DNA of 44,040 bases from Jimgerdemannia flammicorona. Taxonomy: Eukaryota. Of the stretch, positions 5,348 to 43,756 are shown piece by piece. Numbering within the stretch: the stretch's first letter is position 1; each line of letters starts with the position of its first letter. A program made the position numbers and the translations under genes. The stretch is from the NCBI GenBank assembly GCA_003990765.1, contig RBNJ01000073.1, forward strand, positions 1 to 44,040. Direction: 5' to 3'. The notes under the pieces are model-generated. The model was given only the letters and a program-made list of their open reading frames with translations. It made no database searches and was not told the DNA's origin.

Positions 5348-5348
5348 A

Positions 5349-5361
5349 CTCTCCCCTTCTT
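5349..5361 (-). promoter_or_regulatory. Polypurine tract of element B
   Basis: Minus strand AAGAAGGGGAGAG just before the 3' LTR start. Confidence 0.85.
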
Positions 5362-9240: not shown

Positions 9241-9439
9241 TTCAGTTGTAGAAGTTTTTCTTCTATTTGTTCTTCTTTGAGCCAGTTCATTGATACAAGA
9301 GAAGCAATTGTCGATTATTCAGAAAGAGTACATTCCAATGTCATGGGGGCATCAGCTACTGAGTATATATCCATCTTCGATTTTCTTGTAGAATTATTCT
9401 TCTTTATTCATGGTAGGTTGGGCTGGGGCCTTGTTTGAT

Positions 9440-9850: not shown

Positions 9851-9899
9851 GTAGTCAGGTTATTGAGGTGATGCAGAGTAGTAACAGTTGCTCATATAG

Positions 9900-11200: not shown

Positions 11201-11874
11201 GAATCAGTTATATATCTGATTTCAGATAGACTCAATTCAAAGTCAAGTTCTGGTTCAGTATTGATTTTGGGGTCAGATAGGGCTACATATAGCTAGGCCT
11301 GCTTCTGGTTTGGAGTCAGGTTGTTGATAAAGAGTTTCTCTTACTTCTTCTTTAAGAATATAGCAGACCTTGCTGTTCTGAAAGTAGTAGTATAATGTGG
11401 TCTTGGTTCTGATACAGTGAAAATCAGTAGAGTTGAGCCACTTGGCTACAGAGACTTGGGCTTTGTGAGGAACTAAGGCTAGAAAGACTGCTGCTGGTTG
11501 TCCTAGATTATTCAGATGTGTGGAGCTGACAAAACTCTTATTGAGAAGAGTGAAGAAGACTTCTATAAGACCCTCTTTATCTTGACTTGCAGGGTGTAGA
11601 GCAAGAAGTTCAGTATATAGGGTTTTGTCTATCTGCTGATTTAATTGGAGTACTTCTTTCTTTAAATGAAGTCTGTCCCACTTGTTGTAGGTATAGAGGT
11701 CAAATTGTCCTTGTATGTCAGGTTCAATTCTCTCTAGATTGTCAGATAGTTTGGGATAAATTCCAGTTCAGAGGTTGGGCTCTATACTAACTTATAGGAA
11801 TTCTCAGAGGGGTTTATAGTAGAGTGAGAAAGCATCTTAAAGCAGAATTGGATTGTAAACTACTGCTACAAAGT

Positions 11875-13223: not shown

Positions 13224-13228
13224 AATAG

Positions 13229-13850
13229 CCTTCTAAATAAGATTTAGATATGGTGAGTTCTGTATAATACTCTTTGATCTTATCAATATACTAGCAATCT
13301 TCCAAATACTGATGAATAATACTTTTTAGGATTATATTAGGGTATTTGTTCCAGTATATCTAGATAATATTCTACTCAGAATGCTCATTGATCACTATGT
13401 TGCTAGTATTTTTTCTCCAAAAATAAGGTCTTGATTGTTGCCAGAAGTCTGTATAACTTAAATGTTACTGGAGAAAGATGATTTCTATTAATTCTACTTA
13501 AGCTACCAATAATAACTAAAGACAAAAAGTTAGACTGCCATATCCAAGGCTTAAAAGGGAATACATGAGTTAAGGTTGAGCTAGAAGAGCCACAGACTCT
13601 TAATGAGACTATGAGATTTACTGATAGGTTTGATGTCCATCACCTTTGGCAATCACTTTGAACCAGAATACTGCAAGAAGAACTACTTTAAGAACTATTA
13701 CAAGAACCAACCCAAAGCAGTTGACCCAGTACCAATATATCTAAATACTATAAATAAGAAAAATAACAAGCTTACCTCTGAAGAGAAAGACTTTCTGTAG
13801 AAATCTGAAGCTTATTTCTTCTATCACCAAACAGAACATATTGTAACTGT
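13229..13850 (+). pseudogene. Heavily decayed gag of an older Ty3/Gypsy element C, into which element B inserted
   Basis: Plus strand KLDCHIQGLKGNT*VKVELEEPQTLNETMRFTDRFD, then PVPIYLN (PVPMDLD-like) and KLTSEE...AYFFYHQTEHI (decayed knuckle). 3115-3264 is probably its other side. Confidence 0.65.
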
Positions 13851-13854
13851 AGGC

Positions 13855-16800
13855 TCACAGGGGCATTGTACATTCTGAATGGAATTTGCAAATAGACATA
13901 GATTCTATCTGGGGTGATGAAGGCTGACTTTTCACTTATTGCTTCAGTGAGGCTGATTTGGTAGAATTCTGAGTATAAGTCCAAGATGCTGTAGTACTGT
14001 ACTTCATCTTCCAAAGTTACAAGGATGTCACTGATGAGGGGTAATGGTTGGCAATCTTTCTTGGTAACCAAGTTGAGCATCCTGTAATCAGTGCAGAGTC
14101 TTGGAGTGAATTCTCCTAGCTTGCTTCCTTTTTTCAGGACTAGTACAACTAGTGAAGCCCAGGGGCTGCTGACTTCTTTAATGATACCAGCTTCTTCTAT
14201 CTGCTTGATTTCTTCTCTAAGCTATTTGCTGTAGGCTAGTAGTATTAGTCTTGCTTTTTGATAGATTGGTTCAGTGTCTTCTGTGTCCATGACATGATAG
14301 TAGTATGGGGTCTTTCCTTTGATACTCTTGAAATCTGCGACTAGAACATTCTTGAATTCATAGAGTATCTTCTTGAGTTCCTTCTTGAGTGGAAATTTGT
14401 TTCCAATAGTATAGCTATACTTGTTCATAGTTTCCTCCTTCTTGTGATCTAGTTTGGTAATATTGGTGCTAGTGAATACTTCTCTTTCTGTAGATCTGAA
14501 TCCTTTCTTTCCTCTTTCCATTTCCTTCAACTTCTTGACTTCCATGATCCTTGGTTGAAGAACTGGAAAGATTAACATCTATATTAGTTGGTCCTTCTTC
14601 TTGATTGGAAATAAAATTATAGGATTATGATTCCTAGCAATAAGTAGTATTTCTCTAATATAATCTAAATCAATGACTTCTCTTTCAATTGTGATTTCAC
14701 TCCTAGCTAAGCTGCTTCTTGTTTTGAGGATTCTGACATGGTCCTTTGGAATGGTCATCTCCAGACCAGTTGCAAGTAGGGTAGTTGTCTGGAGCTCCAG
14801 TACAGTTTCTTCTCCTGTGGCAATATCCATTCCAGCTACATTCTCTGACTTATATTCTGGTAGAACTGCATTAGAGTAGATCCTCCAAATCTTGATTGAT
14901 TTCTTCTTCATCATCACTGTCCTTCAGAAGGGCTAGTGGTTCATCATCCTCTTCCTCCTCCTCTTCTCTTTCCTGCTTTTTGAGAGCCTTCTGTCTTCTT
15001 TCCTGGTAGATCTTTCTGATGCCAATGCTACATTGGTAGCAGTCATTGATGTGCTCACTACAGTATATCTTGATTTCTTAGGGGCAGACTCTTTATAGTA
15101 TATATCCTTCTGTGATCTTCCTGTACCAGTCTTCTTCACTGATCTATCTAACTTTCTTCTTCTTTTTCTGAGTAGTTACCATATAGGCTCCTTCATGCTC
15201 ACTTTCTTCTTCCTCTATCTCAGGCAGCACTTCTTTATTAACATTAATAGAAATTCACATCTTCAGGCCTTAGTAGATGATCTGTATCTTCTGGGCATTC
15301 AGATTGATTATTGTCTTGGCTTTATAAAGCCACTGATTGCTGATGAGGATGTTATAGTTGGTGGCATTGGTCATGATCATATCTACTGAGATAGTTGCTC
15401 AAAAAAACTTGAGGGGAATATCTTAGATCTTTTTTAAAAATATGGCCCTTATACTATCTGCTGTGACAAATACCAGCTTAGTTACTTCTTCAACCTCCCA
15501 ACCTAAGCAGTCTGCTGCTTTCTTACTAAGGAGACATTCTCCTGCTCTTATATCAATGATGGCCTTGAAGATTCTATCTTCAATCTGATAGGTTGTATAG
15601 GTAGAGATCTTGCAATTATCTTTGCTCTCTTCTCCTAAGTCTTCTTGAATATTGTTGGCCTTGGTAATCTTTTAATATTGCTCCTTAGTTATCTCAGCAA
15701 GTCTATATCTCATTTGTTGTCTGAAGAATATAGATATTTCTACCAGCTGACCAAAGGTTGTATTGACTTTTTGTTGGCTGAGGTTCTTGAAGATATTATA
15801 TTTGAAGATCTTGGTTTTGTGAAGCTTTTTCTCCTTTTATCCTTCATTGGCTAGAGTGGTTCCTCAAATGATATCTTGGACAGTCTGTTCTAGCTCTATA
15901 TCTTGATCCATTTCTTTACTTTGACTTTCTATAGCAGTCTCTATCTATATTTCTACAGAGTTCTCCTTAGATCTCTCTAGTAGTCTCTTATAGGGTTACT
16001 TGTGGATATCTTTCTTAATAGTCTTGGCAGAGTAGGCCTCCTATTTCTCTTCATCTGATTCTCCAATCTTTTTGAAGGTGATAGTGTTGGCCTGTTCTTT
16101 ATTTCGAGTAGTATTTCTTGGCTGAGCCTTATACTTGGTTCTACTCATATATTTATATAAGTAGTGGTCTTCTTCTCTACAAGTGTAGCAGGTATCTCTC
16201 TTCTTGTCTGAGGTGGTGGCAAATTTCTGAACTGAGTGCCAGTCTCTTCCTTTAATTTCCTTTACTACATCTTCTAGGTAGGTTATCATTTTAGTAAACT
16301 TCTTAGTAAGTTTCTCTATAGGGTCACTATTTCTTTGCTGATCAGTAGCTCTTGGCTGGGGTATATTTCGATTGATTACTGCAGTAGGGATCACACTAAT
16401 TGCCTTGAGTGCTTTGATTCTATCCAGTAACTCTTTTCATTATGTGGTCTTGTGGATATCTGACTATCCAGTATTGCTGAGCATAGGTAATATTTTGTGG
16501 TAGATCCAGAACTATTAGTGATAAGCAGATGGCTAGGGCTATTACTGAGTAGACTTCTCTTATAAAGGTTAACTTAACTACTTGATCTCAGATAGTGTTA
16601 GCATAATCTGCAAGTATTATCTGATATTAGATTCTGATATAGAATGTGTTTGGATTCTTACTCATTCCTTGGCAGATTGTATTGAGTTGATCCTTCAAAG
16701 CTTACTTGATCTCATCTATATAGTAGATGGCTTAAAGCCAGGTCTTCTGTGCTGCTAGCACTATATTGTCATCATTTCTCACATAGATTGTGACTTCAAA

Positions 16801-17548: not shown

Positions 17549-19480
17549 ATTCATATATATTACTTAGTATCTAGTATCTGGCTCTAGACAATAGTAGTCT
17601 CAAGAAACTCAGACCCTACTATATTAGACTATTTTAGATTCTAAAAAAGTATTGATTTATTATATATAAGTTAGTTTTCTTGATAACATTTTAAAAAATT
17701 CACTTAGTATTCCATATATCTCAGCTTTAACTATAAATTCAAAATATTTTTAATAGAAGAATTATACTATCTTTATATATATCTAATTATCATTAATTAA
17801 GAACTAGAATTAAAGTTAACTACTTTTTAAATTATAAAAATTAATAATTTAGATAAGTTATCAAACTTATCTACTACTATCTTATAAAATAAAAAGGCTA
17901 TTTCCAATATGATACTATCTAGAAAAAAGAAAATAATCTCTTACTAAATAAAGAAGAGATATTAACTTAATATATATATATATACTATATACATAATAGA
18001 AATTCTAATAAAATTTCTAAAGAATAGTTATACTTTTAACAGGATAGATATAAGTATTCTTTTGAATATTATATATAATTTATCTATAATATAAATAACT
18101 ACTAATAATATTAAGAACAAATCATAATTAAAATTACTATAGTTATTTTTATAACTATTAAATATGTATTAATAGACTTCTACTAAACTATTATATATAT
18201 CAATATAGATATTTAATAGTTTAGAATCTAAAGAATCTAATATCTTTAAGCCTTTTACTATTAGTAAGAGTTGAAGAAATAATATAAGATAGAATAAATT
18301 ATCTATCAATAAACTACTCTCAGTAAGACCAAATAGCTATTCTGTCTTTTATTAATAACTATATTTATATTATTATATAGAGACTATATGTTCTCTTTTA
18401 TATCTAAATACAAGTTCTTAATTAACTTCAAGAAGTATTCTCTAAAAATATCACTAACTTAACTATAAATATTAGAGCAATAATATTTTTTAAGTTAACT
18501 AATATATAGTACTTCAGTTTAATAAGTATCTTAAGTTTAGTATAGATTTAAATAAATAAATTTGAATAAAAAAAATAAAGATATAATAGTTTATTAAAGA
18601 GTAATAAATTATTGAAAATTTTAATCTAATAGTTATATATCTTATATAGTATAATTATATATAGATATATTCAGTATACCATATTTAGCCATAGTTATAT
18701 AATCTGTATAAATACTCTCTATATTAAGTATATTATAACCTTAGCTCTACTTTTCTCAAAAATGAAGAAGTATTCTTATTAAGAATTCTTAAATCTAACT
18801 TGTTTATAATTCTGAGTCTAATTAACTTAGAATTAACTATCTAATAATAAGACTCTAAAAGTAAACTGTATAAGTTTAGTAATATAATTAGACTCAGTAC
18901 TTCCTCATAAGAACTTAAAACTTAGAGCTATATAATAATCTATAATAGATTATCTGCAATATATTAATTCAATCAATATTTTTTTTTTAAAAAAAAAAAA
19001 TTAATTATATAGATATATATTATATCCATATCTATTATTTTACAATATATAAAAATTCAATCTTTTAAATTTACTTTATAAATAATAATAAAAATATATA
19101 AATTATTTTTCATTTTTAATAGATTGTGTTATATTTATAATAAAAAAGATATATTTATTAATAAATCACTTAGTTATATTTTTGTTTTAAGATTAATATA
19201 CATATATAAATATTATATATATTCTATAGTTTTCTGAATCTCAGTAACTCAATATTTTCTTATTTCAAAAAACAATACTAATCAATCTGGTCTCTATAAT
19301 AAAAATAAATATACATATAATACTATTAGGTCTAATAAATATATTTAAAGGTATTTGCTTACTTTCATTTCTCTTTTTTTTAATTATTATAGTATTAAAT
19401 ACTAATATATCATGGAGAAAAATAGTATACAATTATGAAACAATATGAAAAATGTTAACTTACTCAAATGAAATTGTAAC
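17549..19480. other. Extremely AT/TpA-rich decayed repeat-derived DNA
   Basis: No ORFs of 60 aa or more, essentially no CpG, abundant TA/TAG/CTA; abrupt switch to CpG-containing DNA at ~19,500. Confidence 0.6.
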
Positions 19481-19688
19481 TCCAAAAAATTCAAGTGACA
19501 CAGCCACAAGATTAGATTCGCCTACACCAGAGTTGTCGAATCTGCGCTGCCCTGATATTCGTCATAAACCAGTATAACGAAAAACAAAGCTTCATCAGCC
19601 AAGCAACACAACACGAACACGGACTTTTTTACTCCCTCGGCAAACTGTCAACTCTTCAATGCATTGCCACAAACATTCCCTCGTCAGC

Positions 19689-19726
<38 letters not shown>

Positions 19727-22700
19727 ACAAACCCCCAAGACAGCGCTGTGTCAACTACGACATGAACAGGAATTTGGTGGCAGGCAAAAACCCCCTGTTT
19801 GATATGTCGAGGCTTGGGGAAAGATTGCTCCTATATCCTTTCCAACATCAAGGGAACTTTGCAACCGCCATTGGCAACCGAAGACAGCACCGCGAAAAAG
19901 GTAAAAGCGATTCTATTCCCAAGATATGTCTAATTATCCCTTGTACGTTGTTCTCAGTATAATAGTTGTCTCTAAAACTGTGTAGCTTGAAGAAAAACTT
20001 ACCTCTAACTCCCAACCCCCTTTGTTTTATTTTTGCTAGAAATGATAACGTACAAGTCAGCGACTAGTTATACAGATAGCGAAATGCGGCTAGACACTGT
20101 ACCAATGGGCTGAGTTGGCCAAAATATCGAGGTAGTTATAAAGACGCAAAAAAGGGGCATTTTTGCAAACGGGACCCGTGGCGCGTGTAAAGGACAATGG
20201 ATAATCCATGTCACCTACAGCTATGCAATAAACATAAATAGGCAAGAGTCGCTATGAGGTTTTACATCATGCTGGTAACCGATGTAATGGAGATGGCTGC
20301 AAATGTTGGGCTACTCTTCGACGGGGCGGTATGTTGTTTTATTGCTGCTAGGAGGTACCGCGTTTTGGCGCTGCAGAATCATACAGTGTTCCATCCTCGA
20401 CCAATTATACTGACATCCACACTGTCTTCCAACTTTCGCCGTCTATTGCCTAAATGCTAATATCCAGCTGCCCATCACTACTCGGCGTGAAAGAGGCCGT
20501 CACATCTTATTGTTTTTTGGCCCCGAATAAAAACGATTGGGTTCTGTTTCGGCGTAATTCTTAAAATTCTTGGTCTACAAAATGTCATTCCAGCGATCGC
20601 CGGTCGTCAAATGCACGTAAGAAGCGGCTCAAAGGGGTGCGATGAAATATGTTGGGATTTGCAACTCGTTATGGCTTATGTACGTCATCAGTCTACGTCA
20701 TCAGTAATCGCACTGCAATATCAATAAAGTGCCGCTCTCTGTAAAGAACCACCTAATCACGACAGGTTATGAGCCCACCTACAAAAGGCTACGAGCACCG
20801 CCTACAAAATAAGACTCCGCGCATTTCCTCCATTCCAGCCAAACAAAAAAAAAAAAAAAAAAAAAAAAATGCAGCCAACCCGTACCACTGTTTCGACAGC
20901 CTGAATTCCTTGAAGCCAATTTTCGACAATTTTGAGTCGGTCTATTCGAACCAAGTGCCATACATACGTCACATTTATAATCCGGCCACGCGTTCTTGAA
21001 ACTTCCGTCGAATCGAATGGGATCGATTAGTTCGGAGTCTGCTAGCCACACTAGCATCGAAATCAACACTCTAATAAACTTGAACTAGTTATCGAACGTA
21101 ATTCGCCGCGACTCCTTTATTGCTTATCCTTTATTGCTTATAAGGTATCGCCCCATATAGATTACAATAAAAAATAACAATGAAAGGAGAGTCGAAACCC
21201 ATGTGACAATATTCCTGTTCAGTCTACATACACATATTGGCTCCGATCCTCCCGCCCTAGTAACAGTAACCATCCTAATAAAGATCTCAGCCGTGACGCC
21301 CTGCCCCTCTTCCCTCCCCGCCTCCCTTCACCTCACTCCTCTTTTTCTAGCAGCATGGCCATGCCCTACGTTTCATTCCTATCCCGTGACCACTAACTCT
21401 TACCTTCCCGGGCACCCGCTCTTGTTCTTGAAAACGTCTCCATCCTTGAGCGGTGTTTGTGGTGATAGTGAGGTAGGTGTTACGATAGTGATTAGCGACA
21501 GCGGCGGGTCTATTCTCGTCGTGCTGTTGGACTCGGGGCCGTTCGCTACCCCCCTCCCAACCCCACACAATTACCGACCTACACCCTGCTCACTTCCTCC
21601 TACCTCTCTCCACCACGCATGTCCCGCCTGGTCACCTCACCCGCGTGCGTCGAGCCAACAGAGGCGTAAAGCATCCAATTCTTCATGAGGACGTCGTTCA
21701 TAAGCAACGGACAGGATGTACCACTGACGCTGGACGAAGTAAGTTTGGATTGTCGGACTGGCCATGGCTCCGGCGGATGGCGGCGTTGTTCGAGATGGCA
21801 ATTTGTCGACGGTCAACGGTTCTGGGAGAGGGTTGTATTTGGAGAGGTGTGCTCAATCTCCTAAAATCACAAGAGATGCGCGCTCGGCCCCATCCACCTT
21901 TAACTGCTCTCTTCATTTTTCTTCGCCTCTGTCCCTCCCCTCATGTTTCCTCCAAAATAGACACCTACCTACCAATCACTTGCGATCACAACAATATTCT
22001 CCTTCGCATCTGGCTTAAAATCTGGGCAAGCGTAAAGTTGAGTGGAAGCCTGCCAGGGTAACAAACGTGGTTATATGAGAAAAAAAAGGATTGAATAGTT
22101 CAGAGTTTAGGAATTTCGAGTCGAAAACGATGCGCATATCGTTCTTTCCTCCCGCGATCTCCGCCAAAATAAAGGAAACGCATACCTCTGCATCTCTGCT
22201 CCTGTGGGAGTCAAGGCTCCTATGGGGGTCAAGGCTCATCGCGTCCATATTTTCAACAACATAGATCGCAGACCGATTGCATATTGCATCTCCAAAGCCG
22301 AAGAACTAAAGAGGTTCAGAACAGTATACGAGTTCTGTTATTAGTTTTCATCGGGCATGTGTGGGATAAATAGAGAAATAGATGCAAGGACAATTCGTAC
22401 GTGCTTGGTCGGAATGTGGTGGGATTCGTCAGAGTGACGTGTCTTTCGTTTGTTGAGTGGCACGGCACGTTAGGTTGACGCGTCGAATTTAAGGTTGTAT
22501 GGAACGGTGGCGCGAGGCCCTGACAAAAGAAGGTTCACGAACTACGCAAGCTGTGCGAAGCCCTTACGTGGATTACAGCATTGTTAACTAAGGGATGTTT
22601 CATAGGATAACAAAGGCTTATCGGGCTAAAACGGGTGAATTGGTGAATCGACATGAACGCGTAGTCCGTTCGACGAGTTCATTTTCTGGCCTTTTTTTCA

Positions 22701-23247: not shown

Positions 23248-24005
23248 AATTTCGCTAGAAAATTCTTATGCCTACATACTTCAAACGAAAACCCCTGAGT
23301 GTCCCATTCACTATCGACGATGAAGCGGAACCAAAGCAAGAGACACCAGAGGCAATACATCACCCAGGATCACCCTCGCGTCTACTTTCAAACCTACCAA
23401 AGAACCGAAAATTACATAAAGGCATAAATCATATTGACCCCTATAATTTTCCGTGAAAGAATCACGTTATAATTAAAGGGGCTTGGCTGTCTACACTCCA
23501 CCGAGCTTTGGACCCCCAACGGTCTTGACATTCTGCCTATATATTTTTTTTGTCCTTGCCCTTCCTACGGCCCCGTAACAGAAATATCCCTCCTCCAGCC
23601 CTCCAGGCTCGCCCTCCCAACCTCCCGAAGCCACAACAACGACATTACAAAGAATACTTAATTCGAGTTACTGGGAATATTTGACGAAAGTCGATTCTAG
23701 TTATAACCCTACGAGTAATTCTTTTAACCGTTCCATGCGAAGAAGGCGGCTACTTTCACAGCAGTTTGGCGGACGGCGGGGGTAGCTGACTAAGTGGCTG
23801 AATGGGGCGAAGGGGTGCTGGTTTTGAGTACTCAATAGAATAGCGGACCCAGCAGCGAAAAATTGTTTGTAGAAGGAAACTTATTCAAGTCACTGTGGCT
23901 TGCGTGTCTGACCGGTTCGACCCGAAAAGGACTGACCCGGCGAGTCAATTATGCAACGGCGAATGTTTGTCAAACTGGAGAACACCCCAACATTCACTCA
24001 GAAAA

Positions 24006-27000
24006 ATGCTAATATCCTTGTCAAAGGATCCCCCCAATAGAAACCGCAAAGATAGCAGAGTCCGTGTCAAGGTTTCTGCTGATTACCTGGCTGAGCTCGT
24101 TGAAAGCCATTCCTTCAGCTTTCGGGAAATCCAAGAGGGTCGATTTATCGCCGACGATGTCTTCAATGTAAAACCCAACTCTGCAGATCTCAGAAAATAC
24201 GGCAAAAGGTTGTTCTGGGCCCTCTTTTCGAATAAAGAGACCAGCGCGGCCTGGCGTCTGCTGAAGGTTATATTATCATCTCAATCAAAGGGTCGGATCC
24301 TTCTCGAACTCAACGGCAACCATGACCTCGAAGTCATCCCCTGGGAGTATGCATGGGGCAACAATGCATATCTGACCAGCCAATGCATATTCGTACGCCT
24401 GCAAAATCCGCAGGGGCGTCAGCCATCGAGGCGTCAGCCGCAGGACCTTCAGCCATCGAGACTTCAGGAACTTCCGCTGCGCATCGTCGCCGTCGTACCG
24501 GACCCCCTCATCCCGGCGGGCGATCCTAACGCGAAGCAATTTCCAGATCTACATCTGAGTGATCAGTTTCAAAGATTATGTGATGCGTATAAGAAGAGTA
24601 ATCGACAGATATTACTGGAGCGTGTGTTCCCGCCGACCGTCGAACAAATGTACGAGTTGCTAAGGGGCAAGCGTGACAAGGCTACGGTGCTTCATTTCAT
24701 GGGACACTGTGGCTCGCAGAATGGTGGTGCGAGGGCACTCATCTTTGAAGATCAAGATGCAGGCAGTCTCGACTTTGCTGACGCGCTACGCTTCGACAAA
24801 TCCATGAATCTGAGGCTGGTGTTCCTCTCTGCCTGTAATACTCGCCAAGTCGCCCAAGACTTGGTCAAAAACGGCATTCCATACACCATCGGTTCACACT
24901 GCCCTCTGCCGGATGACCTCGCCCGCAAATTCGAATACAAATTCTACCAGTTGCTGGTCAGTGGCTACACAGTCGAAAAGGCGATGTTGGAAGCGCGCGC
25001 CTCAATGAAAGACCCAAAAGACATCCGGCAACGTAACTACTTCCCGGGTGCCATGGTGCTCTACTCGTCCACGTTTCGGGAAGAGGATGGTGCATTCAAG
25101 TGCGGGGAGGGCAGGCCCACGATCGAAACCCACATGCCCCCCAACAACCTCGAAGTGCTCCCATTCACGCGAATTTTTTGCGGACGCAAGGAGAACCTTA
25201 TCGAGATAACTCGCACTTTGAGGCGTATGGTGGAGAGAGGAACAGAGACCCGTCCCATGTACACCATTGAGGGCATCGCTGGTCAGGGCAAGACGGCGTT
25301 GGCTGAAATGGCTGTCCGGCGGACAGCGCATCTTTTCCCCGGTGGGATATTTGCTTGGCGTTTCGATCCTTCTCGCAAGGTATCGATCATCAAATATCTT
25401 CGGCGTCTGGGAAAGGTTTTATTTCAGGAAGATTTCGGCAACAACTTTTACAAGTTGGAACAGTCTGTCATCAAGAAATTCTTGAGCCATCAGCCGTGTT
25501 TGTTGATCCTCGATCAAGCTGATGTCTTGAAGCGCGCGCAAGATAAAGGAGATGTGGGAGCCGCACATTTGATAAAGTGGCTTCTGAAAATTATGTCGAT
25601 ACGCGGGATTGTAGTTAAATATTTTGCAACATCACAACAACCTCTCAATTGGACAACGGAGGAGAATCCTATGGTTCTCAACGGTTTAACAGATTTGGAT
25701 ATTGGTAGCGGCGTCGAGTTGTTCATTCGAAATCTTGATGCTCAAGTAAGGAAGAGGATGGAGAAAGAGGACAATACCAAGCAGTTGCTGCACGATCTCG
25801 TCAGGTTCGTAGACGGACATCCACTGTGTTTGGAATCCCTTGGCCATGCCGTCGGCTTATCACAACATAGCAATGCATCACTTGAGGAACTCGTTCATGA
25901 CCATTTCGATAAAATGCTAGTGAAGGGCTCACATGGAAGTAGAAACCTCAAAACTCGTTTCCAACCAACCATCGACGCGCTTCCAACACGGCAGCGCCTG
26001 CTACTCTATATGTGTTCTCTCTTCACCGGACCAATAACAGAAGGAGTGCTCGCGTTCTTACATTATTTTGTCAAATACACTTCGTCGTCGGAAGGGGTTG
26101 ATTATAGTAATGAGAACCTGCAACAATTATGTGATAGCCAGTTATTGTGGAAAAGAGAAGTGGAATACAAGATTCATGTCGCTCTTAAGGAAGGTGTGAG
26201 ACAGTGTAATTCTGTGATGAAACTGCAACTATGTATGCCGATACTCGGCGAATATGGTGACACGTTTGTAATTGGCATTGCCAAAGCATCTAAGCATGGT
26301 GAGTAATGCAAATGAAATGTGAATATTTGAATCTATTTCGTTCACGATTTCAACTATCTTTTAATTTTCACAACAGGAATTTCTATGGTGCGCGAATGGC
26401 AACTCCGAAGTATCCAAGAACACGCCCACAGTGAAGTGAAGCACAAGACTTATGGCGTACAATATTATGACATTGTCGACATTCCTGGTGCCAGCAGCCA
26501 CAAAATAATAAGGGACGGCGTGGAGCAGCAATTGTTATTTGGTGGATTGGTAGTGTTCAGACGTACAGCATCCGAAAATCTTCAAGTTAGTTTTCCTAGG
26601 TTCTGCATGGAGAACATCATACCGATTGTGACAGAAACGAAATCGCCGTTCATTCTGTGTTTGCATCATGCCGACACGGAGCCCGGCAAACGACCTACCA
26701 CAAATGCCGCAAGGAATATAGTTCTGATGAAGAAAACCATGGAGATTTTGCAATCTGCTCTGGAGATGACGCACTTTATAATTATGACGGAACCTCCTCT
26801 GGGTGAGTTGTAGTCTCTTCCATTCGTGAGCAACAATTGTGAGAAACAATTCAGATTCAAAATAACATCGTCGAACTACTTTTTTGAATGCACGAACTGA
26901 TAGACATTATCCGCGGAAAAGGATGTTTGCCAAGTGAGCGGAAATTTTGGTATAGTAATGTGAAAAGGATGAACTAATAGAAAGCGCTCGCTGACAAAGA

Positions 27001-30000
27001 TGCTTCCCATTCATCAAACCAAAGGCGTCAGTGAGAGCCAACCGCCAATGGAGGTAGATTTTGGCAACGTCCACACATGTGGAAATTTTGTTGGACGTCA
27101 GCAAGAACTCCAGAAATTGGAAGAACTACTGAGTGACAAAGAAATTCGCTATATCACCATTCGCGGTTTTGGCGGGATGGGCAAAACGGCATTGGCAATT
27201 CACGCAGTCAAAAACTTCAAAGCTGGCAGAGTTCTGGTGATATCCCTCGTTGGAAACCCAAGTTCAGATGCAGTAATCTCAACAATCGCCGGACTTCTCA
27301 ACATCGACATCGAAACGTCTCGAAATCCAGGGCTTCGACAAAATTTAGTCACGGCTAAGTTATCTAGTGGAGGGAAAATGCTATTTTATCTTGACCATAT
27401 GGATGATGTCAAGCATGCAACTAAACACGAAGACCCAGCGACGAAAGAGGATGCAATAGCTTTGATGAGGTTTTTCCACCATATACCGAGCAACATTAAG
27501 GTTCTTGCAACATCAAGAATCGCGCTTGGTTGGCCCAATGAAAAGGCTATCGAGTTGGAAGGTTTAGCGCCAGATGATGGCATACAAGTCTTTCGACAAT
27601 GGGCTCCCGAACGTTTGGATGACATCGACAATGAGCATGCAAAGAAAATTAGTCATCTTGCAGGCGGTCATCCATTATCTATTCGTCTTCTCGGACGTGC
27701 CTTCAACAAGGACAAAGAGTCTGTCGATCAATTCATCAAGAACTTTCGCAAAAGGCTACAGAATGCAAAAGATACTCTTGAGGAACGTCACAATTCGCTC
27801 AAGACCTGCATCCAATCTAGCTTTGATTACCTAGATGAAAATCTAAAAATGTTGCTTGACCAGTTAAGACTATTTGAGGTTGCATTCTCGGCGACGCTAG
27901 TGCAGAAGGTTTTGGATCGTAGCACTGCATCGTCATTGGCATCGTCTGCAGCGAGCAATTTGCATACACTTTGGCAACAGAGCTGGCTGAACGAACTCAA
28001 GTATGATTCAAGGTTCGGTGACTGGCGTCCCAGGTTTATGGAGAAAGATACAACGTTTTACACCCTACACCCTCAATTGCGCGAGTTCCTCAATCACCAG
28101 TCTAGCCATGCCGAACATTCCGTTACTGACATGTGGTATGATTCGGAGATACAGTTCTATACTGCCTTATGTTACGGCGTTGGTTGCGGCGTTGCAAATG
28201 ATCTAGTGAAACAGATTGAGTGGTGCACTAAAGCTGCGACGAATGGACATTTAGAGGCGCAGCTAACCGTTGCTGCTTGTTACGAGGAAGGAGGAGGAGG
28301 CGTAGACGTAGATAAGAAGGCGGCGTTTGAATGGTACTTGAAAGCTGCAGAAGCTGGCGACAAAGGAGCACAAGAAAAGGTTGCAAATTGTTATTTAATG
28401 GGAAATGGTGTCGAGAATAGCATCGAACAATGTCATCATTGGCACAAACTTTACGAGGAAAACAAGAACGATTCACTGTCGATCAAGTTTGATCTTTCTC
28501 TTCCGCTGTTACATCGCGCAGCTGAAGGTGGTCATGTGGCATTGATCAGATCATTGCTCAATCAACCCAACGCCAACGTCGAATTGAAGGACAGGCATGG
28601 TCGGACCCCACTGCACCTAGCTGTCGAGAAAGGTCACATCGACGTGTTCAAGCTACTCGTGTTGGAATTCAATGCAAACCCCAATGCAGAGGACAAGAAA
28701 GGTAACACGCTAGTGCACCGTGCCGCAGAAAACGGACATGTCGAATTCATAGTCATACTCATGGACGCGTTTGGGGCGGACGCTAACGCCAAGAACATCG
28801 ACGGATGGACGCCGTTGCACCTGGCTGCGAAGGGAGGGTACGTCGAAGTCGTGAGGTTGCTGGTGACCGAGTTCGAGGCGTTTGTCAAAGTTAGCAACAA
28901 CGAGAGATTTATACCGATCCGTTATGCCGCGGTTAATGGGCACGTCGAGGTCGTGAAATTGCTTCTAGTCGAGTTTCAAATGCTAGATTTCGGAGGTATG
29001 CCAGAATTATGTGAAGCATTGTATGAAGGCCATGGAGTCAAGCCCACGATCTGCTGTGCGTGTTTGCTCACCCACCTTCTATTCATGTTTAGGGTACCGC
29101 ATAGGCAACGATGGGGCACGTGCCATAGCCGAGTCTCTGAAGCAGAACTTGACCTTGGCCACGCTGAATCTCGGAAGTATGTCAGAACTGTGTGAAGCAT
29201 TGTGCAGTCGCACGACGAAATCAAGCTCACGATCTGTGCGTGTTTGTTCAATCCCTTGTTCATGTTCAGGGAACAGCATCGGCCACGAGGGGGCACGTGC
29301 ATTAGCTAAGTCAATGAAGCACAACGCGACCTTGACCACGCTGAATCTTGAAAGTATATCGGAAATGTTTGAAGCATTGTGTGCAACCGCGCGATGGTTT
29401 CAAGCTCACGATCTGTGTGCGTTCGCTCATTTATCCTCCTTTCATGTTCAGTGAATGGCATCGGCGACGAGGGGGCACGAGCCATAGCCGAGTCTCTGAC
29501 GCAGAACACCACCTTGACCATGCTGAATCTCGGAGGTATGTCGGAACTATGTGAAGCATTGTGTGCGGCAGCGCGATGGAATCGAGCCCACGATCTGGGC
29601 GTTTCCGCTCATCCCCTGTTCATCTTAAAGGGAATTACGTTGGCCACGAAGGGGCCCGTGCACTAGCTGAGTCTCTGAAGCAGAACGCGACCTTGACCGG
29701 GCTAAATCTCGGAGGTATGTCGGACCCTGGTGAAGCATTGTGTGCAGCAGGTCGATGGAATGAAACTTACGATCTGTGCGTGTTCGCTCATTCATCCCCT
29801 GTTCATGTTTAGTGAATAGCATTGGTGACATGGGGGCACGCGCCCTAGCCGAGTCTCTGGAGCGTAACGCGACTTTGACCACGCTGAATCTCGGAGGTAT
29901 GTCGGAACTGTGTGAAGCATTGTTTGCAGCTGCGCGATGGAATGAAGCTCACGCTCTATGAGGATTCGCTCATCGATCCCCTGTTCATGTTCAGTGAACA

Positions 30001-32579
30001 GCATCTGCGACGAGGGGGCACGAGCCCTAGCTGAGTCTCTGAAACAGAACACGACCTTGATCACGATAAGTCTCCGAGGTACGTAGGAAATGCGTGAAGA
30101 ATTGTGTGCAACTGCTAAATGGAATCAAGTTCATGGCCTAAGCGTGTTCACCCATCTATCCCCTGTTCATGTTCAGACAACAGGATCGGCCAAGAGGGGG
30201 CACGCGCCCTAGGGGAGTCTCTGAAGCAGAACACAACTTTGTCTACGCTGAATCTCGAATGTATGTCGGAACTGTGTGAAGCATTGTTTGAAGATGTGCG
30301 ACGAAATCAAGCTCGGTTCTGAGGGTGTTTGTTGATCCCATTTTCAGGGAATTGCATCGGCCACGAGGGGGGACGCGCTCTTGCCGATCCTCTGAAACAG
30401 AATACGAGCTTGACCACGCTGAATCTCGAAAGTATGTCGACACTATGTGAAGCATTGTATGCAGCTGCGCGACGGCTTCAAACTCATGATCTGTGCGTGT
30501 TCGCCCATTTATCCTCTGTTCATGTTCAGGGAACGGCATCGGTCACGAGGAGGCACGCGCCCTAGCCACGTCTCTGAAGCAGAACACAACCTTGATCACG
30601 CTGAATCTCGAAAGTAATTCGGAACCGTTTGAAGCTTTGTATGCAGCTGCGCAATGGTTTAAAGTTCACATTCTGTGCGTAATCGTCCATTTTGTACAGT
30701 GAACAGCATCGGCGACGAGGGGGCACGTGCCCTAGCCGAATCTCTGAAGCAGAACACGACTTTGGCTACGCTGAATCTCAAATGTATGTTGACGCATTGT
30801 GTGCAGCTGCTTGCTACAATCGAGCTCACGATCTGTGCGTGTTCGCTCATCCATCTCATATTCATGTTCAGTTAACAGCATCGGCGACGAGGCGGCACGC
30901 GCACTAGCTGAGTCTCTGAAGCTGAACGCAACCTTGTCTATGCTGAATCTCGAATGTATGTCGGAACTGTCTAAAGCATTATATGTAGCTGTGCGATGGA
31001 AACGAACTCAGGATATGTGTGTATTTCCTCATCCATTCCCTGTCCTTGTTCAGGGAACAACATCGGCCACGAGGGGGCACGCGCCCTAGCAGAGTCTCTG
31101 AAGCAGAACACGACCCTGACCACGCTGAATCTCTACAGTATGTCCGAACTGTGTGAAGCCTTTTACGCAGTTGTGCGATCGTTTCAAGCTCACTATCTGT
31201 GCGTGTTCGCTCATTTATTCCCTGTCCTTGTTTAGGGAACAGCATCTGTCACCAAGGGGCACACGCCCTAGCCGAGTCTCTGAAGCAGAACACGATCTTG
31301 ACCATGCTGAATCTGGAAAGTATGTCGGCACCATTTAAAGAATTGTGTGCAGCTGCGCGATGATTTCAAGCTCACTTTCTGAGGGTGTTCGCTCATATTT
31401 ATCCTGTTCATGCTCAGGGAACAGCATCGGCCACGAGGGGGCACGCGCCCTAGCCGAGGCTCTGAAGCAGAACACGACCTTGACCATGCTGAATCTCCAA
31501 AGTATGTCGGGACTGTTTGAAGCATTGTGTGCAGTTACCCGATGGTTTGATATGTGGGTGTTCGCTCATTTATCCCATCTTCATGTTCAGTGAACAACAT
31601 CGGCGACGTGGGGGCAAGCGCCCTAGCTGAGTCTCTGAAGCATAACATAACTTTGTCTATGCTGAATCTCGAATGTATGTCAGGACTGTGTAAAACATTG
31701 TTTGCAGCTGCGCGATGGAATCCAACTCAGGATCTGTGCGTGTTTTCTCATCTATCCCCTGTTCATTTTCAGGGAACAGCATCGGCCACAAGGGGGCACG
31801 CGCCCTAGCCGAGTCTCTGAAGCAGAACAAAACCTTATCTATGCTGAATCTCGAATGTATGTCGGAACTGTGTCAAGCATTGTTCGCAGCTGCGCAATAG
31901 AATCAAGCTCAAATCTGTACATATGGTTCACCCATCACCTGTTCATGTTCAGGGAACAGCATCGGCCACGAGGGGGCACGCGCCCTGGCCGAGTCTCTGG
32001 AGCAGAACATGGCCTTGACCACGCTGAATCTCTACAGTATGTCGAATCTGTATAAGCATTTTGTGCAGCTGCGCGATGGTTTCAAGCTCGTGAACTGTTT
32101 GTGTTCTTCATTTATCCCCTGTTCATCTTCAGAGAACGGGATCGGCGACGATGGGGCACGTGCCCTTGCCATGTCTCTGAATCAGAACAGGACCTTGACC
32201 ACGCTGAATCTCGAAAGTATGTCGGAACTGCTTGAAGGATTGTGTGCAGCTATGCGGTGTTTTCGAGCTCGCGATCTGTGCTTGTTCGTTCATTTACCCC
32301 TCCTCATGTTCAGTGAACAGCATCGACGACAGGGGAGCATTCGCCCTAGCCGAGTCTCTGAAGAAAAACACGACTTTGGCTACGCTGAAACTCAAATGTA
32401 TTTCGGAACTATGTGACGCATTGTGGCAACTACTCGATAGAACCTAGCTCACGATCTGTGCATATTCGCTCATCAATCTCTATTCATATTAAGGTAACAT
32501 CTTCGGCGACGAAGGGGCACGCGCCCTAGCCAAGTCTTTGAAGCATAACACGACCTTGACGCTATATTATATGATGTAA
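24006..32579 (+). CDS. Multi-exon NLR-like protein (~2,130 aa): CHAT protease, NB-ARC/STAND, spacer, NB-ARC/STAND, Sel1 x3, ankyrin x5, LRR x20
   Basis: Exons join in one frame through phase-1 GT-AG introns: 24,006(or acceptor at 24,027)-26,298; 26,377-26,802; 26,904-26,933 (mini-exon, less certain); 27,025-28,995; then LRR exons starting at 29,093, 29,270, 29,452, 29,631, 29,813, 29,995, 30,177, 30,348, 30,530, 30,700, 30,872, 31,054, 31,236, 31,418, 31,591, 31,773, 31,953, 32,133, 32,314 (84 nt each) and 32,494-32,579 (TAA). True start uncertain; upstream exons possible near 23,268 and 23,582. Confidence 0.85.
24200..25070 (+). other. CHAT (caspase/separase-like, clan CD) protease domain
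   Basis: LEVIPWEY, VLHFMGHC (His at 24,705-24,707), LIFED, LVFLSACNT (Cys at 24,834-24,836), FEYKFYQLLVSGYTVEKAMLEAR. Confidence 0.88.
25170..26200 (+). other. First NB-ARC-like STAND NTPase domain
   Basis: FCGRKE; Walker A GIAGQGKTALA; Walker B LLILDQAD; FATSQ; GHPLCL (GxP); YKIHVALKE (MHD-like). Confidence 0.85.
27085..28095 (+). other. Second NB-ARC-like STAND NTPase domain
   Basis: FVGRQQEL; Walker A GFGGMGKTALA; Walker B LFYLDHMD; VLATSR; LEGLAPDDG; GGHPLSIRLLG; YTLHPQLREF. Confidence 0.9.
28140..28460 (+). other. Three Sel1-like repeats
   Basis: AQLTVAACYEEGGGGVDVDKKAAFEWYLKAAEAGD plus two flanking similar units. Confidence 0.85.
28500..28979 (+). other. Five ankyrin repeats
   Basis: GRTPLHLAVEKGHIDVFKLL, GWTPLHLAAKGGYVEVVRLL and similar units. 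Confidence 0.92.
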
Positions 32580-32690
32580 ACGACGATGGTATGGTATATC
32601 AGACAGTGTGAAAAATTTTGTGGAGCTGCGCGATAGTATTGGGCTGACGATCTGTGCGTGTTCGCCCATCATCCATTCATTTTCAGATGG
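28996..32690 (+). repeat. Tandem array of ~180-bp intron+exon units, each encoding one 28-aa RI/NLRC3-type LRR
   Basis: Unit = GTATGTCGGAACTGTGTGAAGCATTG...GTTCGCTCAT...TTCATGTTCAG intron (~87-98 nt) plus an 84-nt exon xNSIGHEGARALAESLKQNTTLTTLNLx; 20 exons and 21 intron copies. Confidence 0.95.
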
Positions 32691-33328
32691 TAACAGCAGC
32701 TGCACTACATAATCGGGAGATTTATTCTTATGTAATCTTGCTTCTATAGCTCTGTGTGTTTCAACAGTGATTCAATTTTGACTCTGCTAGAATTGTTTTG
32801 AGGTTTCAATAAGAGAGAATTGTGGCCATATTCAAGTTCACTTAGGATTACATATTGGGAGAGAATAGCAATCTGATAGCCAAGAGTTAATCATTATTGG
32901 TATTCTTCAGAAATATCAACTTTCAATGCTATAAACAGTACTCACTATTGGATGTTTGTAGCAAATTTGAAAAGTCAGATAGGTAGTAAAATGTTTGATA
33001 AATTGATGCTTAATGAAAAACTGATCAAATGAATGATATATTTGAAGATGGGACAAGCATAATAACCAGCCAAATTTGAGGCATTTTTTTAAAAAAAATC
33101 CCAGGATTTTGGGCTTGAGAGCTTCACATGCCAAATGCACCGGCATAAAATTTTGAGAATACCGGGTTGTGTGAGAGAGGTATGCAAAAACAAAGTGGTA
33201 GCAATGCCAGCTCCTGCGGCGCGACCAAACGGCCGTAATCTCGCGGTGTCCTGCTAGCACCACCATCCCCTGCCCAGCTTCGTGCAAGCTCGTGGGCGCC
33301 CTTTCCGCGCCGCAACCCGGGTGTTTCC

Positions 33329-33999
33329 AACGCCAAGAAAACTGATGGATGGACACCGCTTCACGCAGCTGCGAAAAACGGCCACGTCGAGTTTGTGAAA
33401 TTGCTCATTGCCGACTCTAAGGAGGACACCGACCTCAAGACCGACATATTATGGACGTGGCTGCGCAGAACGGGCACATCGATATTGTGAGGTTGCTCTT
33501 GGCCGACTCCAAGGCCAACGCCAAGGACAAGGACGGATGGACGGCGCTTCGCTGGGCAACGACCGAGGGGCACGTCGGAATTGCGAAAATGCTCTTAGCC
33601 GACACCAAGTGGGACGCCAACGCCAAGACGAAGGACAGAAGGGCGCCGCTTCACCTCGCTGCGCAGAACGGGCACGTCGATATTGTGCGGTTGCTCTTGG
33701 CAGACACCAATGCGGTTGCCAACGCCAAAACCAACGAAGGGCAGAAACCGTTGCAGCTGACAATTGAACGGCCGATCCACTCCGGAATTCGATGCGGTGG
33801 ATGTAAGCTGTACCCAATCACTGGAGAACGATATAAGTGCACGACCTGTGAAGACTATGATTTTTGCAGTTCATGCTCTATCAAGGAAACTGGTATTCAT
33901 AATAACCATGAGTTTTGCCTTTTTGAATTGACTAAGGCCACTGTGGAGGCTTTGGAAGATTTACAGATGGTGAAATCGCTTTATCTATTTGAGTTGTGA
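33329..33999 (+). pseudogene. Ankyrin repeats plus ZZ-type zinc finger; 5'-truncated, frameshifted fragment (a 182-aa ORF remains from 33,451)
   Basis: NAKKTDGWTPLHAAAKNGHVEFVKLL starts mid-repeat at 33,329; frameshift at ~33,445; three more ANK repeats; then HSGIRCGGC..PITGERYKCTTCEDYDFCSSC...HNNHEF. Confidence 0.75.
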
Positions 34000-38843: not shown

Positions 38844-40043
38844 TGTTTAGTGGAAAAGGGCAGCAAATAACTTGGCGGCGACGGTCTTGATGGTCTTGCT
38901 CTTTAGGCAGTCAATTAAAGCAGTCTGTAGCACAGTAGGTCGGGGAAAACAGAGGTTGATGGCTCGCTCATCCATCTTGGTTAACTTGAAAGGTTCCTGG
39001 CAGTCATTCGGGTCTTTGGCAGCAGTCTTGTATCCTTTGGCTGGGTAACTTGGGTTCCTTGGGTTCTTTAGCTGTGTTGCCGGGGTCTTGAATCTCGAAT
39101 GGCAGTCTCGAATGGTGGCGGTCGGGTAACATTTTCTTTCTTTCTGTAGCAAGAGAAATTCTTTAACTCAAACCTCGAGTGATCCATTGCTCTAGTTATT
39201 TTGTTCTCAGAATTCCGTTCTCTTGGAGGCAGTGTGTTTTCTCTATAAAACTGTCTGACTGAGGCTTTATTCACTCTAAGATATAGGGTTATTTATACAA
39301 ATTTGCTAGCTATGGGGGGGGCTAAGGTATACTATGTTGTGGCAAACTTCGCTATGCTATTGGCTTGCATGATGTGAAGGGCTGACTTGCTGACATAGAC
39401 AGATATGGATATGATGATTGTTGCCAGGAACAGTTGTGCTGGGTAGCAATGCTGGATTCAGACTTGCTGACAAAATGCTGAAAATGGTGGCACTGGATAG
39501 CAATGCTGGATTTGGACTTGCTGACAAAATGCTGAAAATGGTGGTACTGGATAGCAATGCTGGGAATGGTTGTACTGGGTAGCAATGCTGGATTCGGACT
39601 TGCTGACAAAACGCTGAAAACGGTGGCACTGGATAGCAACGCTGGAAACAGTTGTGCTGGGTAGCAATGCTGGATTCGGACTTGCTGACAAAACACTGAA
39701 AATGGTGGCACTGGATAGCAACGCTGGAAATGGTTGTGCTGGGTAGCAATGCTGGATTCGGACTTGCTGACAAAATGCTGAAAACGGTGGCACTGGATAG
39801 CAATGCTGGAAATGGTTGTGCTGGGTAGCAATAGCTGGATTCAGACTTGCTGACAAAATGCTGAAAATGGTGGCACTGGATAGCAATGCTGGAAACAGTT
39901 GTGCTGGGTAGCAATGCTGGATTTGGACTTGCTGACAAAATGCTGAAAACGGTGGCACTGGATAGCAATGCTGGAAATGGTTGTGCTGGGTAGCAATGCT
40001 GGATTCAGACTTGCTGACAAAACGCTGACATGAAGGCTACACA
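38844..40043 (-). repeat. Probable 3' LTR of element D (~1.2 kb)
   Basis: TGTTTAG...CTACACA imperfect terminal inverted repeat; shares the TATA block gggttatttatacaa.tttgctagctat...ggctaag (~39,286-39,326) with the family A LTR (~2844-2885); adjacent PPT is weak. Confidence 0.55.
39425..40030. repeat. 82-bp minisatellite (~7 copies) inside LTR D
   Basis: Unit starts at 39,569, 39,651, 39,733, 39,815, 39,898 and 39,980. Confidence 0.92.
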
Positions 40044-42567: not shown

Positions 42568-43756
42568 AGGGGGGGCAAGATGGGCAAAACGACACAGGCA
42601 AGATGGGCAAGATGGGCAACATGGGTAACATGGGCAACATGGGCAAGACGGGCAAGACGGGCAAGATGACAAGATGGGCGACATGGGCAAGATGGGCAAA
42701 ACCGGCAAAACGACACAGGCAAGACAGGCAAGACAGGCAAGATGGGCAAGACGGGCAAGATGGGCAAGACGGGCAAGATGGGCAAAATGGGCAAAATGGG
42801 CAAGATGGACAACACGGGCAAGATGGCAAGATGGGTGACATGGGCAAGATGGGCGACATGGGCAAGATGGGCAAAACGGGCAAAACGACATGGGCAAGAC
42901 CGGCAAAACGGGCAAGATGGGCAATACGAGCAAGATGGCAAGACAGGAGACATGGATAAGACAGGCAAAACGGGCAAAACGACAGGGCAAGACTGGCAAA
43001 GTGGGCAAGATGGGCAACATGGGCAAGACAAGATGGGTGACATGGGCAAGACGGGCAAAATGGGCAAAACGACAGGCAAGATGGGCAAGACAGGCAAGAT
43101 GGGTGAGACGGGCAAGACGGGCAAGACGGGCAAGATGGGTAACACGGGCAAGATGGGCAAGACAGGCAAGACGGCAAGACGGGTGACATGGGCAAGATGG
43201 GCAAAACGGGCAAAATGACACGGGCAAGATGGGCAAAACGGGCAAAATGGGCAAGACGGGCAAAATGGGCAAGACGGGCAAAACGGGCAAAACGAGCAAG
43301 ACGGGCATAATGGGCAAGACAGGCATAATGGGCAAAACGGGCAAGATGGGCAACACGGGCAAGATGGCAAGATGGGCAACATGGGTAAGATGGGCAAAAC
43401 GGGCAAAACGACATGGGCAAGACCGGCAAAACAGGCAAGATGGGCAATGTGGGCAAGACAAGATGGGCGACATGGGCAAGACGGGCAAAATGGGCAAAAT
43501 GACAGGCAAGATGGGCAAGACAGGCAAGACAGGTAAGGCGGGTAACACGGGCATGACAGGCAAGATGGGCAAGACGGCAAGTCAGGCGACATGGGCAAGA
43601 TGGGCAAAATGGGCAAAATGACACGGGCAAGACACGGGTAACACGGCAAGACAGGCAAGACGGCAAGACGGGCGACATGGGCAAGACGGGCAAAATGGGA
43701 AAAATGACATGGGCAACCGGGCAACTGGGCAAGACGGGCAAGATGGGCAAGATGGG
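42568..43756. repeat. ~1.2-kb degenerate 9-bp satellite, GGGCAA(G/A)A(T/C), with higher-order structure
   Basis: Directly visible; lies where integrase D is truncated. Confidence 0.95.

Follow-up and report, generated by a model that had tools for sequence, protein, structure and literature searches.

A predicted NLR-like gene ending in one-exon leucine-rich repeats, with the most variable repeat residue split by introns

Introduction

When neighboring exons of a repeat array are joined within a codon, the residue at the junction is specified by both of them, and the question arises whether such an arrangement serves to diversify the recognition surface of the encoded protein. This question is raised by a predicted gene on the plus strand of a eukaryotic DNA stretch of 44,040 nucleotides (contig RBNJ01000073.1, positions 1 to 44,040; the whole stretch is termed the window in the following) that ends in a tandem array of exons for leucine-rich repeats (LRRs). 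The original prediction for this array held that the codon split by each intron encodes a hypervariable, exposed LRR residue and that new exon pairings create residues found in neither parent. We consider it likely, for the explanation taken as a whole, that the gene is an intact STAND/NLR-like, immune-receptor-like gene with a sensor end formed by 20 ribonuclease inhibitor-type LRRs. The split residue is the most variable one of the repeat, and the effect at the junctions follows incidentally from the phase of the introns and is not a demonstrated generator of diversity.

Results

A complete gene model with one LRR per exon

The spliced model comprises 1225 codons without any internal stop, is assembled from one large exon, 19 further exons and a terminal exon, and encodes NB-ARC, Sel1, ankyrin repeats and 20 LRRs, in this order. 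Tandem Repeats Finder delineated the array at positions 28996-32560 with a period of 182, 19.9 copies and 75% matches, and the LRR exons were located by a scan for 84-nt stretches in an open frame that are flanked by AG and GT. Each of the 19 internal exons measures exactly 84 nt, lies at the place given in the original prediction and encodes one LRR of 28 residues between symmetric phase 1-1 ends. The introns measure 86-98 nt, 11 of the 20 differing from 98 nt, and are without exception phase 1 introns bordered by GT..AG; the donor reads GTATGT and the acceptor CAG in 15 of 20 cases each. Retention of a single intron was computed to result in truncation or a frameshift in 18 of the 20 cases. 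The absence of stops, the preservation of 84-nt exons despite drift in intron length and the cost of retention together argue for a maintained gene and not for a relic, and the germline array already constitutes a complete, spliceable gene. Translation would start at position 27000. The features of the model are given below, all of them on the plus strand. LRR exons 1 to 19 stem from the exon scan and the terminal exon from the splice model; the junction codons, each formed with the last base of the exon before, were read by script.

27000..28995, +, first coding exon as modelled, with NB-ARC, Sel1 and about five ankyrin repeats; open reading frame (ORF) from 26973, first ATG at 27000; ends in ...FG plus G, donor GTATGC
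28996..32560, +, tandem array of 182-bp modules (an intron of about 98 nt plus an 84-nt exon), from Tandem Repeats Finder and self-BLAST
29093..29176, +, LRR exon 1, GG...A; junction before it G+GG, Gly
29270..29353, +, LRR exon 2, GG...A; junction A+GG, Arg
29452..29535, +, LRR exon 3, TG...G; junction A+TG, Met
29631..29714, +, LRR exon 4, GG...G; junction G+GG, Gly
29813..29896, +, LRR exon 5, TG...G; junction G+TG, Val
29995..30078, +, LRR exon 6, TG...G; junction G+TG, Val
30177..30260, +, LRR exon 7, AC...T; junction G+AC, Asp
30348..30431, +, LRR exon 8, GG...A; junction T+GG, Trp
30530..30613, +, LRR exon 9, GG...A; junction A+GG, Arg
30700..30783, +, LRR exon 10, TG...T; junction A+TG, Met
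30872..30955, +, LRR exon 11, TT...T; junction T+TT, Phe
31054..31137, +, LRR exon 12, GG...A; junction T+GG, Trp
31236..31319, +, LRR exon 13, GG...A; junction A+GG, Arg
31418..31501, +, LRR exon 14, GG...A; junction A+GG, Arg
31591..31674, +, LRR exon 15, TG...T; junction A+TG, Met
31773..31856, +, LRR exon 16, GG...T; junction T+GG, Trp
31953..32036, +, LRR exon 17, GG...A; junction T+GG, Trp; its skipping gives T+AG, i.e., TAG
32133..32216, +, LRR exon 18, the sole exon starting with AG, ends in A; junction A+AG, Lys
32314..32397, +, LRR exon 19, TG...T; junction A+TG, Met
32494..32579, +, terminal exon with a shortened 20th repeat and stop codon TAA; junction T+GT, Cys
32580..32710, +, past the stop codon, decayed traces of one more intron and of the beginning of an exon, read directly: intron-like ...CATTTTCAG and, after it, stops in what resembles the start of an exon

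With regard to domain content, the large exon gave a Pfam match to NB-ARC with 40.0 bits (cut-off 23.5) over residues 43-285 of its translation, in which a GxxGxGKT P-loop is visible, and further Pfam matches to Sel1 and to ankyrin families. The predicted protein thus combines a central NB-ARC domain with a C-terminal repeat sensor (Sel1, about five ankyrin repeats, 20 LRRs), which is the layout of NLR/STAND proteins. Nineteen units of 28 residues follow the consensus xNSIGxEGARALAESLKQNTTLTTLNLx that characterizes LRRs of the ribonuclease inhibitor type. Pfam LRR_6 matched 12 of the 19 single units at E<=1 (best value 1e-4), and a profile of the units matched chains of a ribonuclease inhibitor-like protein, GALA, NOD2 and DRC5/TCTE1 (13 PDB sequences, E<=0.001). 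A two-exon read-through ORF yielded no Pfam match. Protein relatives were sought with a read-through ORF of the window (171 amino acids) as the query; for the LRR part, the highest-ranking named proteins stem from Mortierella alpina (43-49% identity) and others from Mortierellomycotina and Hyaloraphidium. The Sel1 part matched proteins of Rhizophagus, Diversispora, Linnemannia and Olpidium, and the nearest relatives of the large exon as a whole are 45-53% identical. Judging by the named matches, the gene probably belongs to an early-diverging fungus of the Mucoromycota. In a protein atlas, the NB-ARC exon found only generic ankyrin/TANC clusters at 0.87, below the lead level of 0.9.

Position and composition of the split codon

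All 20 introns interrupt the codon just before that of the conserved Asn, between its first and second base, so that the exon border always lies inside the codon for x8 of the motif LxxLxLxxN, exactly as had been predicted. Read in order, the 20 junction codons specify G, R, M, G, V, V, D, W, R, M, F, W, R, R, M, W, W, K, M and C. The series of 19 residues in the original prediction is exact for the junctions from 1->2 to 19->20 and is preceded by one G at the border between the large exon and LRR exon 1. The same agreement extends to the bases involved, since the last base before the intron is A in nine cases, T in six and G in five, and the following exons start with GG (10), TG (6) or, once each, with AC, TT, AG and GT. 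It also extends to the neighboring residues (G, E, R, K, Y or Q at x7; S, G, Y, R, C or N after the Asn). Furthermore, the TAG codon that had been foreseen for a skip of 31953-32036 does arise there from T plus AG.

The LRR exons form two types with respect to their 5' ends: those starting with GG carry His at position 6 and those starting with TG, TT or AG carry Asp at this position. His is present in nine of the ten exons with a GG start, the tenth (exon 1) having Asn. Along the array, position 6 reads N H D H D D Q H H D D H H H D H H D D and does not alternate regularly. At the 3' side, the T-ending exons all have Ser or Ala at position 23, and the four LRR exons that end in G (exons 3-6) are adjacent to each other.

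Structural position of x8

The structural setting of the split residue was studied with the AlphaFold model of a relative, P0119 (438 residues), which stands in for the spliced gene product; P0119 is 48% identical to the 171-amino acid query over the best local alignment (56% of the query covered), and its repeat unit is equal. The LRRs of P0119 reach values of 85-90 in the predicted local distance difference test (pLDDT) and show a five-residue strand plus a helix every 28 residues. In this model the strand consists of x3-x7, and x8 is the first loop residue past it. The best Foldseek matches of P0119 are NLRP14, NLRP2/3/9, complexes of ribonuclease inhibitor, and NOD2 (E values from 1e-13 to 1e-17). 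In ribonuclease inhibitor, key contacts to RNase are made at x5, x7 and x8 of the LxxLxLxxN/C motifs. It is reasonable to expect that x8 would likewise be exposed in the protein encoded here. The placement of x8 in the model of the relative agrees with the view that the x positions line a ligand-binding face; contact of x8 with a ligand would be a presumable role.

Variability and selection at x8

Across units 1-19, x8 shows the highest entropy of all positions in the repeat (2.77 bits, 8 residue types), so that the position-wise entropy proposed as a check in the original prediction does single out the split residue as hypervariable. It is followed by x7 (2.11 bits), position 20 (2.08 bits), the residue after the Asn (2.04 bits) and position 7 (1.88 bits). 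Four columns of the repeat are invariant, and the helix ARALAESLKQN, rightly described as nearly constant, ranges from 0 to 1.34 bits per position. On the nucleotide level, the base before the donor and the base after the acceptor have diversities of 0.67 and 0.61 and rank first and third among the 182 columns; intron columns have a mean of 0.252 and a maximum of 0.62, and third codon positions a mean of 0.251.

Pairwise comparison of the units according to Nei-Gojobori gave a synonymous divergence (dS) of 0.353 for all codons and of 0.362 within the scaffold set. The non-synonymous divergence (dN) of the scaffold is 0.099, corresponding to a dN/dS of about 0.27, while x7, x8 and x10 together have a dN of 0.705, about twice dS, and the junction codon reaches 1.01, i.e., about three times the neutral level. 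The pairwise distance of the introns is 0.25, and the overall dN/dS amounts to 0.58.

Several points weigh against the explanation favored here. The gene model is a prediction from the sequence, the structural placement of x8 is borrowed from P0119, and an N-terminal effector or adaptor domain was not found in the ORF, which opens only about 40 residues before NB-ARC. The pairwise dN/dS figures count common ancestry many times over, which is why minimum numbers of changes were also counted on trees of the units; these trees were used for change counts only, because their topology varies with the flank used. Built from 19 short units, they are poorly resolved and differ between data sets, and gene conversion would distort them. 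In addition, the ratios may come out too high, as constraint could also act on the introns that serve as the neutral yardstick. Finally, the two non-synonymous sites of x8, taken by themselves, underwent 6-9 events on the trees vs. 4.4 expected, which is 1.4-2 times the intron rate and not a significant excess for this codon alone (Poisson P=0.28-0.036).

It is therefore necessary to ask whether x7, x8 and x10 are simply unconstrained surface positions that drift neutrally, x8 being extreme only by summing two old polymorphisms of two exons. We regard this as possible, if somewhat unlikely. Such drift would agree with the counts for the last (2-4 changes) and first (4-5) exon base, as compared to a mean of 2.2 per intron column; the second exon base adds 2 changes, and the total for the junction codon (8-11) resembles that of codons 3 (10), 7 (11), 10 (8-11) and 20 (12-14). 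It would also agree with the equality of third-position and intron diversity and with the fact that the units are about equally distant from each other. On the other hand, positions 1 and 2 of the three rim codons x7, x8 and x10 jointly experienced 22 events, where 13.2 are expected from the intron rate (P=0.016), the pairwise dN of these codons stands well above dS, and the same positions lead the ranking of variability in most related arrays. Corresponding sites on the concave face are positively selected in brown-algal LRR exons, as described in passages of Zambounis et al. (2012, PMC3341825). The proposal that variation at the split residue exceeds neutral expectation thus holds for the pairwise values and for the three rim codons taken jointly, but not firmly for x8 alone. 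Support for selection beyond neutrality rests on x7, x8 and x10 together and is only moderate; the rim codons may have been under positive selection.

Among 19 related proteins with at least eight units, x8 ranks first in variability in six and fourth or better in 15, and x7 is usually adjacent to it. As judged from these sequences, high variability at x7/x8 is a property of the LRR class, not of this gene nor demonstrably of the intron. Its occurrence throughout related LRR arrays means that the intron is not necessarily involved.

That the array is the remnant of a decaying pseudogene and its variation a consequence of decay appears extremely improbable to us. The high overall dN/dS and the decayed unit past the stop codon could be read in this way; however, 1225 codons are free of stops, all 19 internal exons retained their 84 nt while 11 of the 20 introns changed in length, GT..AG is kept in every intron, and the scaffold codons evolve with the low dN/dS reported above.

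Origin of the variety at x8 and history of the array

The two halves of the x8 codon are inherited with their own exons and pair as if at random: nine distinct residues are observed, and 20,000 permutations gave 9.3 on average. Each of the six ways to combine an exon 5' type with a last base is present, which suggests old recombination or recurrent change within exons, and much of the junction diversity is an old difference between exon types. When the array was compared with itself, identity amounted to 75-77% at every unit offset, the best offset being four units (77.1% vs. 75-76% elsewhere), and this uniformity argues against recent re-pairing in the germline array. Neither a recent block duplication nor a higher-order periodicity was detected in this self-comparison. 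A BLAST search of one module against the whole window returned 22 matches on the plus strand, all within 28900-32750; inverted or stray copies of the module were not found, with zero matches on the minus strand and zero outside the array.

These observations can be accommodated in the following scenario. Each 84-nt exon would have been copied together with its intron of about 98 nt, and the array probably arose by unequal crossover. With the intron placed after the first base of the x8 codon, and x8 presumably the first residue past the β-strand at the rim of the concave face, the scaffold residues would be held by purifying selection, while x7, x8 and the residue after the Asn would be free, or pushed, to vary, such that each repeat may offer a different residue (W, R, M, G, V and others) to a ligand. 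The variety at x8 would then be encoded in the germline. Its sources would be a small number of old exon types, to which point changes were added, and the location of the codon halves on different exons. Because the introns are in phase 1, every past duplication of a module would have created a new junction codon and thereby set a new x8.

Can the exons be re-paired?

A more far-reaching possibility is that the cell re-pairs the interchangeable phase-1 exons by skipping or other alternative pairing and thus produces isoforms with junction residues foreign to the germline order. Although we consider this very improbable, the architecture lends itself to it: the 19 internal exons share length, phase 1-1 ends and nearly identical splice sites, so that any skip keeps the frame, and alternative splicing of LRR cassette exons has been reported for human NLRP3 (Hoss et al., 2019, PMC6642158) and brown-algal ROCO genes (Teng et al., 2024, PMC11378527) in the relevant parts of these papers. 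Three end bases and six start dinucleotides can specify 15 residues and one stop. Of the 190 non-adjacent pairings, 85 would yield a residue unlike both parental junctions and 34 would yield types that occur at no adjacent junction (E, N, I, S, L or stop). As arithmetic, the creation of residues found in neither parent is therefore correct; the gain is small, however, because just six of the 19 single-exon skips produce a residue new to both parents, one of these six being a stop. TAG results from five of the 190 pairings, all of them into the AG-start exon at 32133. Moreover, the codon halves combine no more diversely than by chance, and x8 is equally variable in related arrays, as compared at the protein level.

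Sequence contigs bearing on this matter came from run X1, a sequencing run of unrecorded kind in which 0.13 of the sampled words were present and the contigs of which derive from many paralogues. Of these contigs, 1343 were placed: 275 at 99% identity or more, 511 at 95-99% and 557 at 90-95%. They include joins that map to non-adjacent exons, e.g., 31137 to 31955, as expected if exons were skipped. On the other side, 677 of the 1343 contigs fit two places, depth rises to about 31,000 and the sides of the joins measure only 20-35 nt, so that the joins are best read as paralogues and none is assignable to the gene. Twelve of 80 joins were decoded by hand and proved intron-less and in frame, with SK, KG, SG, WD, FM, SS, DY, YY, DW, RE, RM and QY at x7-x8; loose ends of some contigs resemble intron tails. 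The joins were consequently rejected as splicing or exon skipping of the gene and taken as intron-less paralogue sequences.

In its widest form, the idea would be that a fungal family of NB-ARC-LRR genes, and of other LRR genes, consists of phase-1 cassette exons that are re-paired by regulated skipping or by frequent unequal crossover between homologous introns, each event rewriting the contact residue. We rate this as improbable. If true, an innate receptor would owe its repertoire to re-pairing, either through splicing or through recombination.

Neighboring genes and the rest of the window

Directly upstream of the NB-ARC-LRR gene, an ORF of 820 codons at 23844-26306 (+) encodes a CHAT protease-like domain (67 bits) and, behind it, a P-loop NTPase region, in which a match to NB-ARC stays below the cut-off (19.7 vs. 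23.5). This ORF probably represents another STAND-type gene, the two genes standing in tandem. Between the two, the ORF at 26331-26813 (+, 160 codons) had no Pfam match; it could be an exon of either neighboring gene, or nothing. Just 3' of the array, an ORF at 33421-33999 (+) encodes ankyrin repeats and a ZZ-type zinc finger and represents a separate gene or an exon.

On the minus strand, positions 215-16436 harbor broken relics of Ty3/gypsy chromoviruses in at least two copies. The region is AT-rich (30-39% GC) and carries reverse transcriptase and dUTPase ORFs (215-805 and 14579-14923, Pfam dUTPase) as well as a tail with SH3_Tf2-1 and a chromodomain at 5842-6183. The best named matches of the transposon reverse transcriptase are plant and Chara elements with about 50-58% identity and do not help to place the host. 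The minimum GC fraction of the window, 0.229, is found at 18001-20000. Two further repeats lie towards its end: an 82-bp tandem repeat at 39433-40028 (6.8 copies, 92% matches, also detected with period 247), located in open frames on the minus strand, and a degenerate 9-bp repeat, GGCAAGATG, at 42597-43756 (about 130 copies, 70% matches), which has a strong GC skew and can be read on either strand as an open frame of low complexity.

Discussion

Comparison with known systems

The protein predicted here shares the LRR class and, to judge from the Foldseek matches of P0119 to 1a4y, 2bex and 1dfj, probably also the horseshoe fold with ribonuclease inhibitor and differs from it by its NTPase domain. 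Ribonuclease inhibitor alternates repeats of 28 and 29 residues, is encoded with two repeats per 171-bp exon and has a strict A/B alternation of repeats, in contrast to the two exon types of this array, which do not alternate in such a way.

In human NOD/NLRC genes, one 28-residue LRR of the ribonuclease inhibitor type is mostly encoded per frame-preserving exon with a constant border in the strand region, and this modularity has been regarded as what makes alternative splicing possible in the first place (Hoss et al., 2019, PMC6642158); it is restated for NLRP3 in a review (PMC10950545). The array resembles human NOD/NLRC and NLRP genes in having one ribonuclease inhibitor-type LRR per frame-preserving exon, and the fold of P0119 matches NLRP proteins and NOD2 together with the inhibitor. 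Differences concern NB-ARC in place of NACHT, the Sel1 and ankyrin repeats between NTPase domain and LRRs, and a host that is probably a fungus; the border position is likened by description and not residue by residue. In contrast to the human genes, the introns here are of small size and, having been copied along with the exons, have remained about 75% alike.

Among ciliates, Tetrahymena possesses arrays of 90-bp LRR exons separated by phase 2 introns, in which adjoining exons jointly encode a "junction" amino acid and form an interlocked unit; passages of the same study interpret these arrays as the outcome of clonal expansion and exon shuffling (Xiong et al., 2019, PMC6564038). Tandem LRR exons of equal length, a single intron phase and a split junction residue are common to both systems, whereas exon length and phase (84 nt and phase 1 vs. 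90 bp and phase 2), the LRR class and the affiliation with ciliates are not.

Brown-algal ROCO/LRR genes feature one 72-bp exon per repeat ("type I LRR exons") in phase 2, and exon shuffling, positively selected x sites on the concave face and up to nine splice variants are described for them (Zambounis et al., 2012, PMC3341825; Teng et al., 2024, PMC11378527). Combinatorial splicing of LRR exons was proposed in these papers as a source of binding diversity. One LRR per exon is again the shared trait, while exon length and phase differ and the border is located elsewhere in the repeat. The hallmark of the algal genes, introns that contain stray or inverted LRR exons together with visible recombination, is not seen in the array studied here.

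As is evident from the parts of the literature cited above, both the exon-modular design of LRRs and the notion of a junction residue have been published before for other lineages. A statement that the split codon specifies the most variable residue was not found in the sections of these sources that deal with human NLR, Tetrahymena or brown-algal arrays, and the literature searched (supplements excluded) contained no description of NB-ARC-LRR genes or cassette LRR exons in Mucoromycota/Endogonales. The array is a clean natural setting in which to study whether the phase of an intron at a contact residue has consequences: as the two parts of x8 belong to different exons, a likely contact residue is rewritten whenever a module is duplicated or skipped. 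The practical value is modest.

LRR-kinase genes are known from Glomeromycotina and Mortierellaceae (PMC10507103). Fungal NLR-like STAND proteins with an NB-ARC type of NOD domain carry superstructure-forming, internally similar repeats with variable positions, and in the corresponding passages of Dyrka et al. (2014, PMC4986451) no LRR motifs are reported among 5,616 fungal NLR candidates; later texts name WD, ANK, TPR and HEAT repeats for fungi in the parts concerned (PMC10197012, PMC12258605). The gene described here is like these proteins in that NB-ARC is followed by repeats including ankyrin, and unlike those surveyed it ends in 20 LRRs. Should the host be a fungus of the Mucoromycota, the gene would join NB-ARC to a long LRR sensor, a combination absent from that survey as far as the passages concerned report (PMC4986451), and the animal-type layout of one LRR per exon would have arisen, or persisted, outside the animals.

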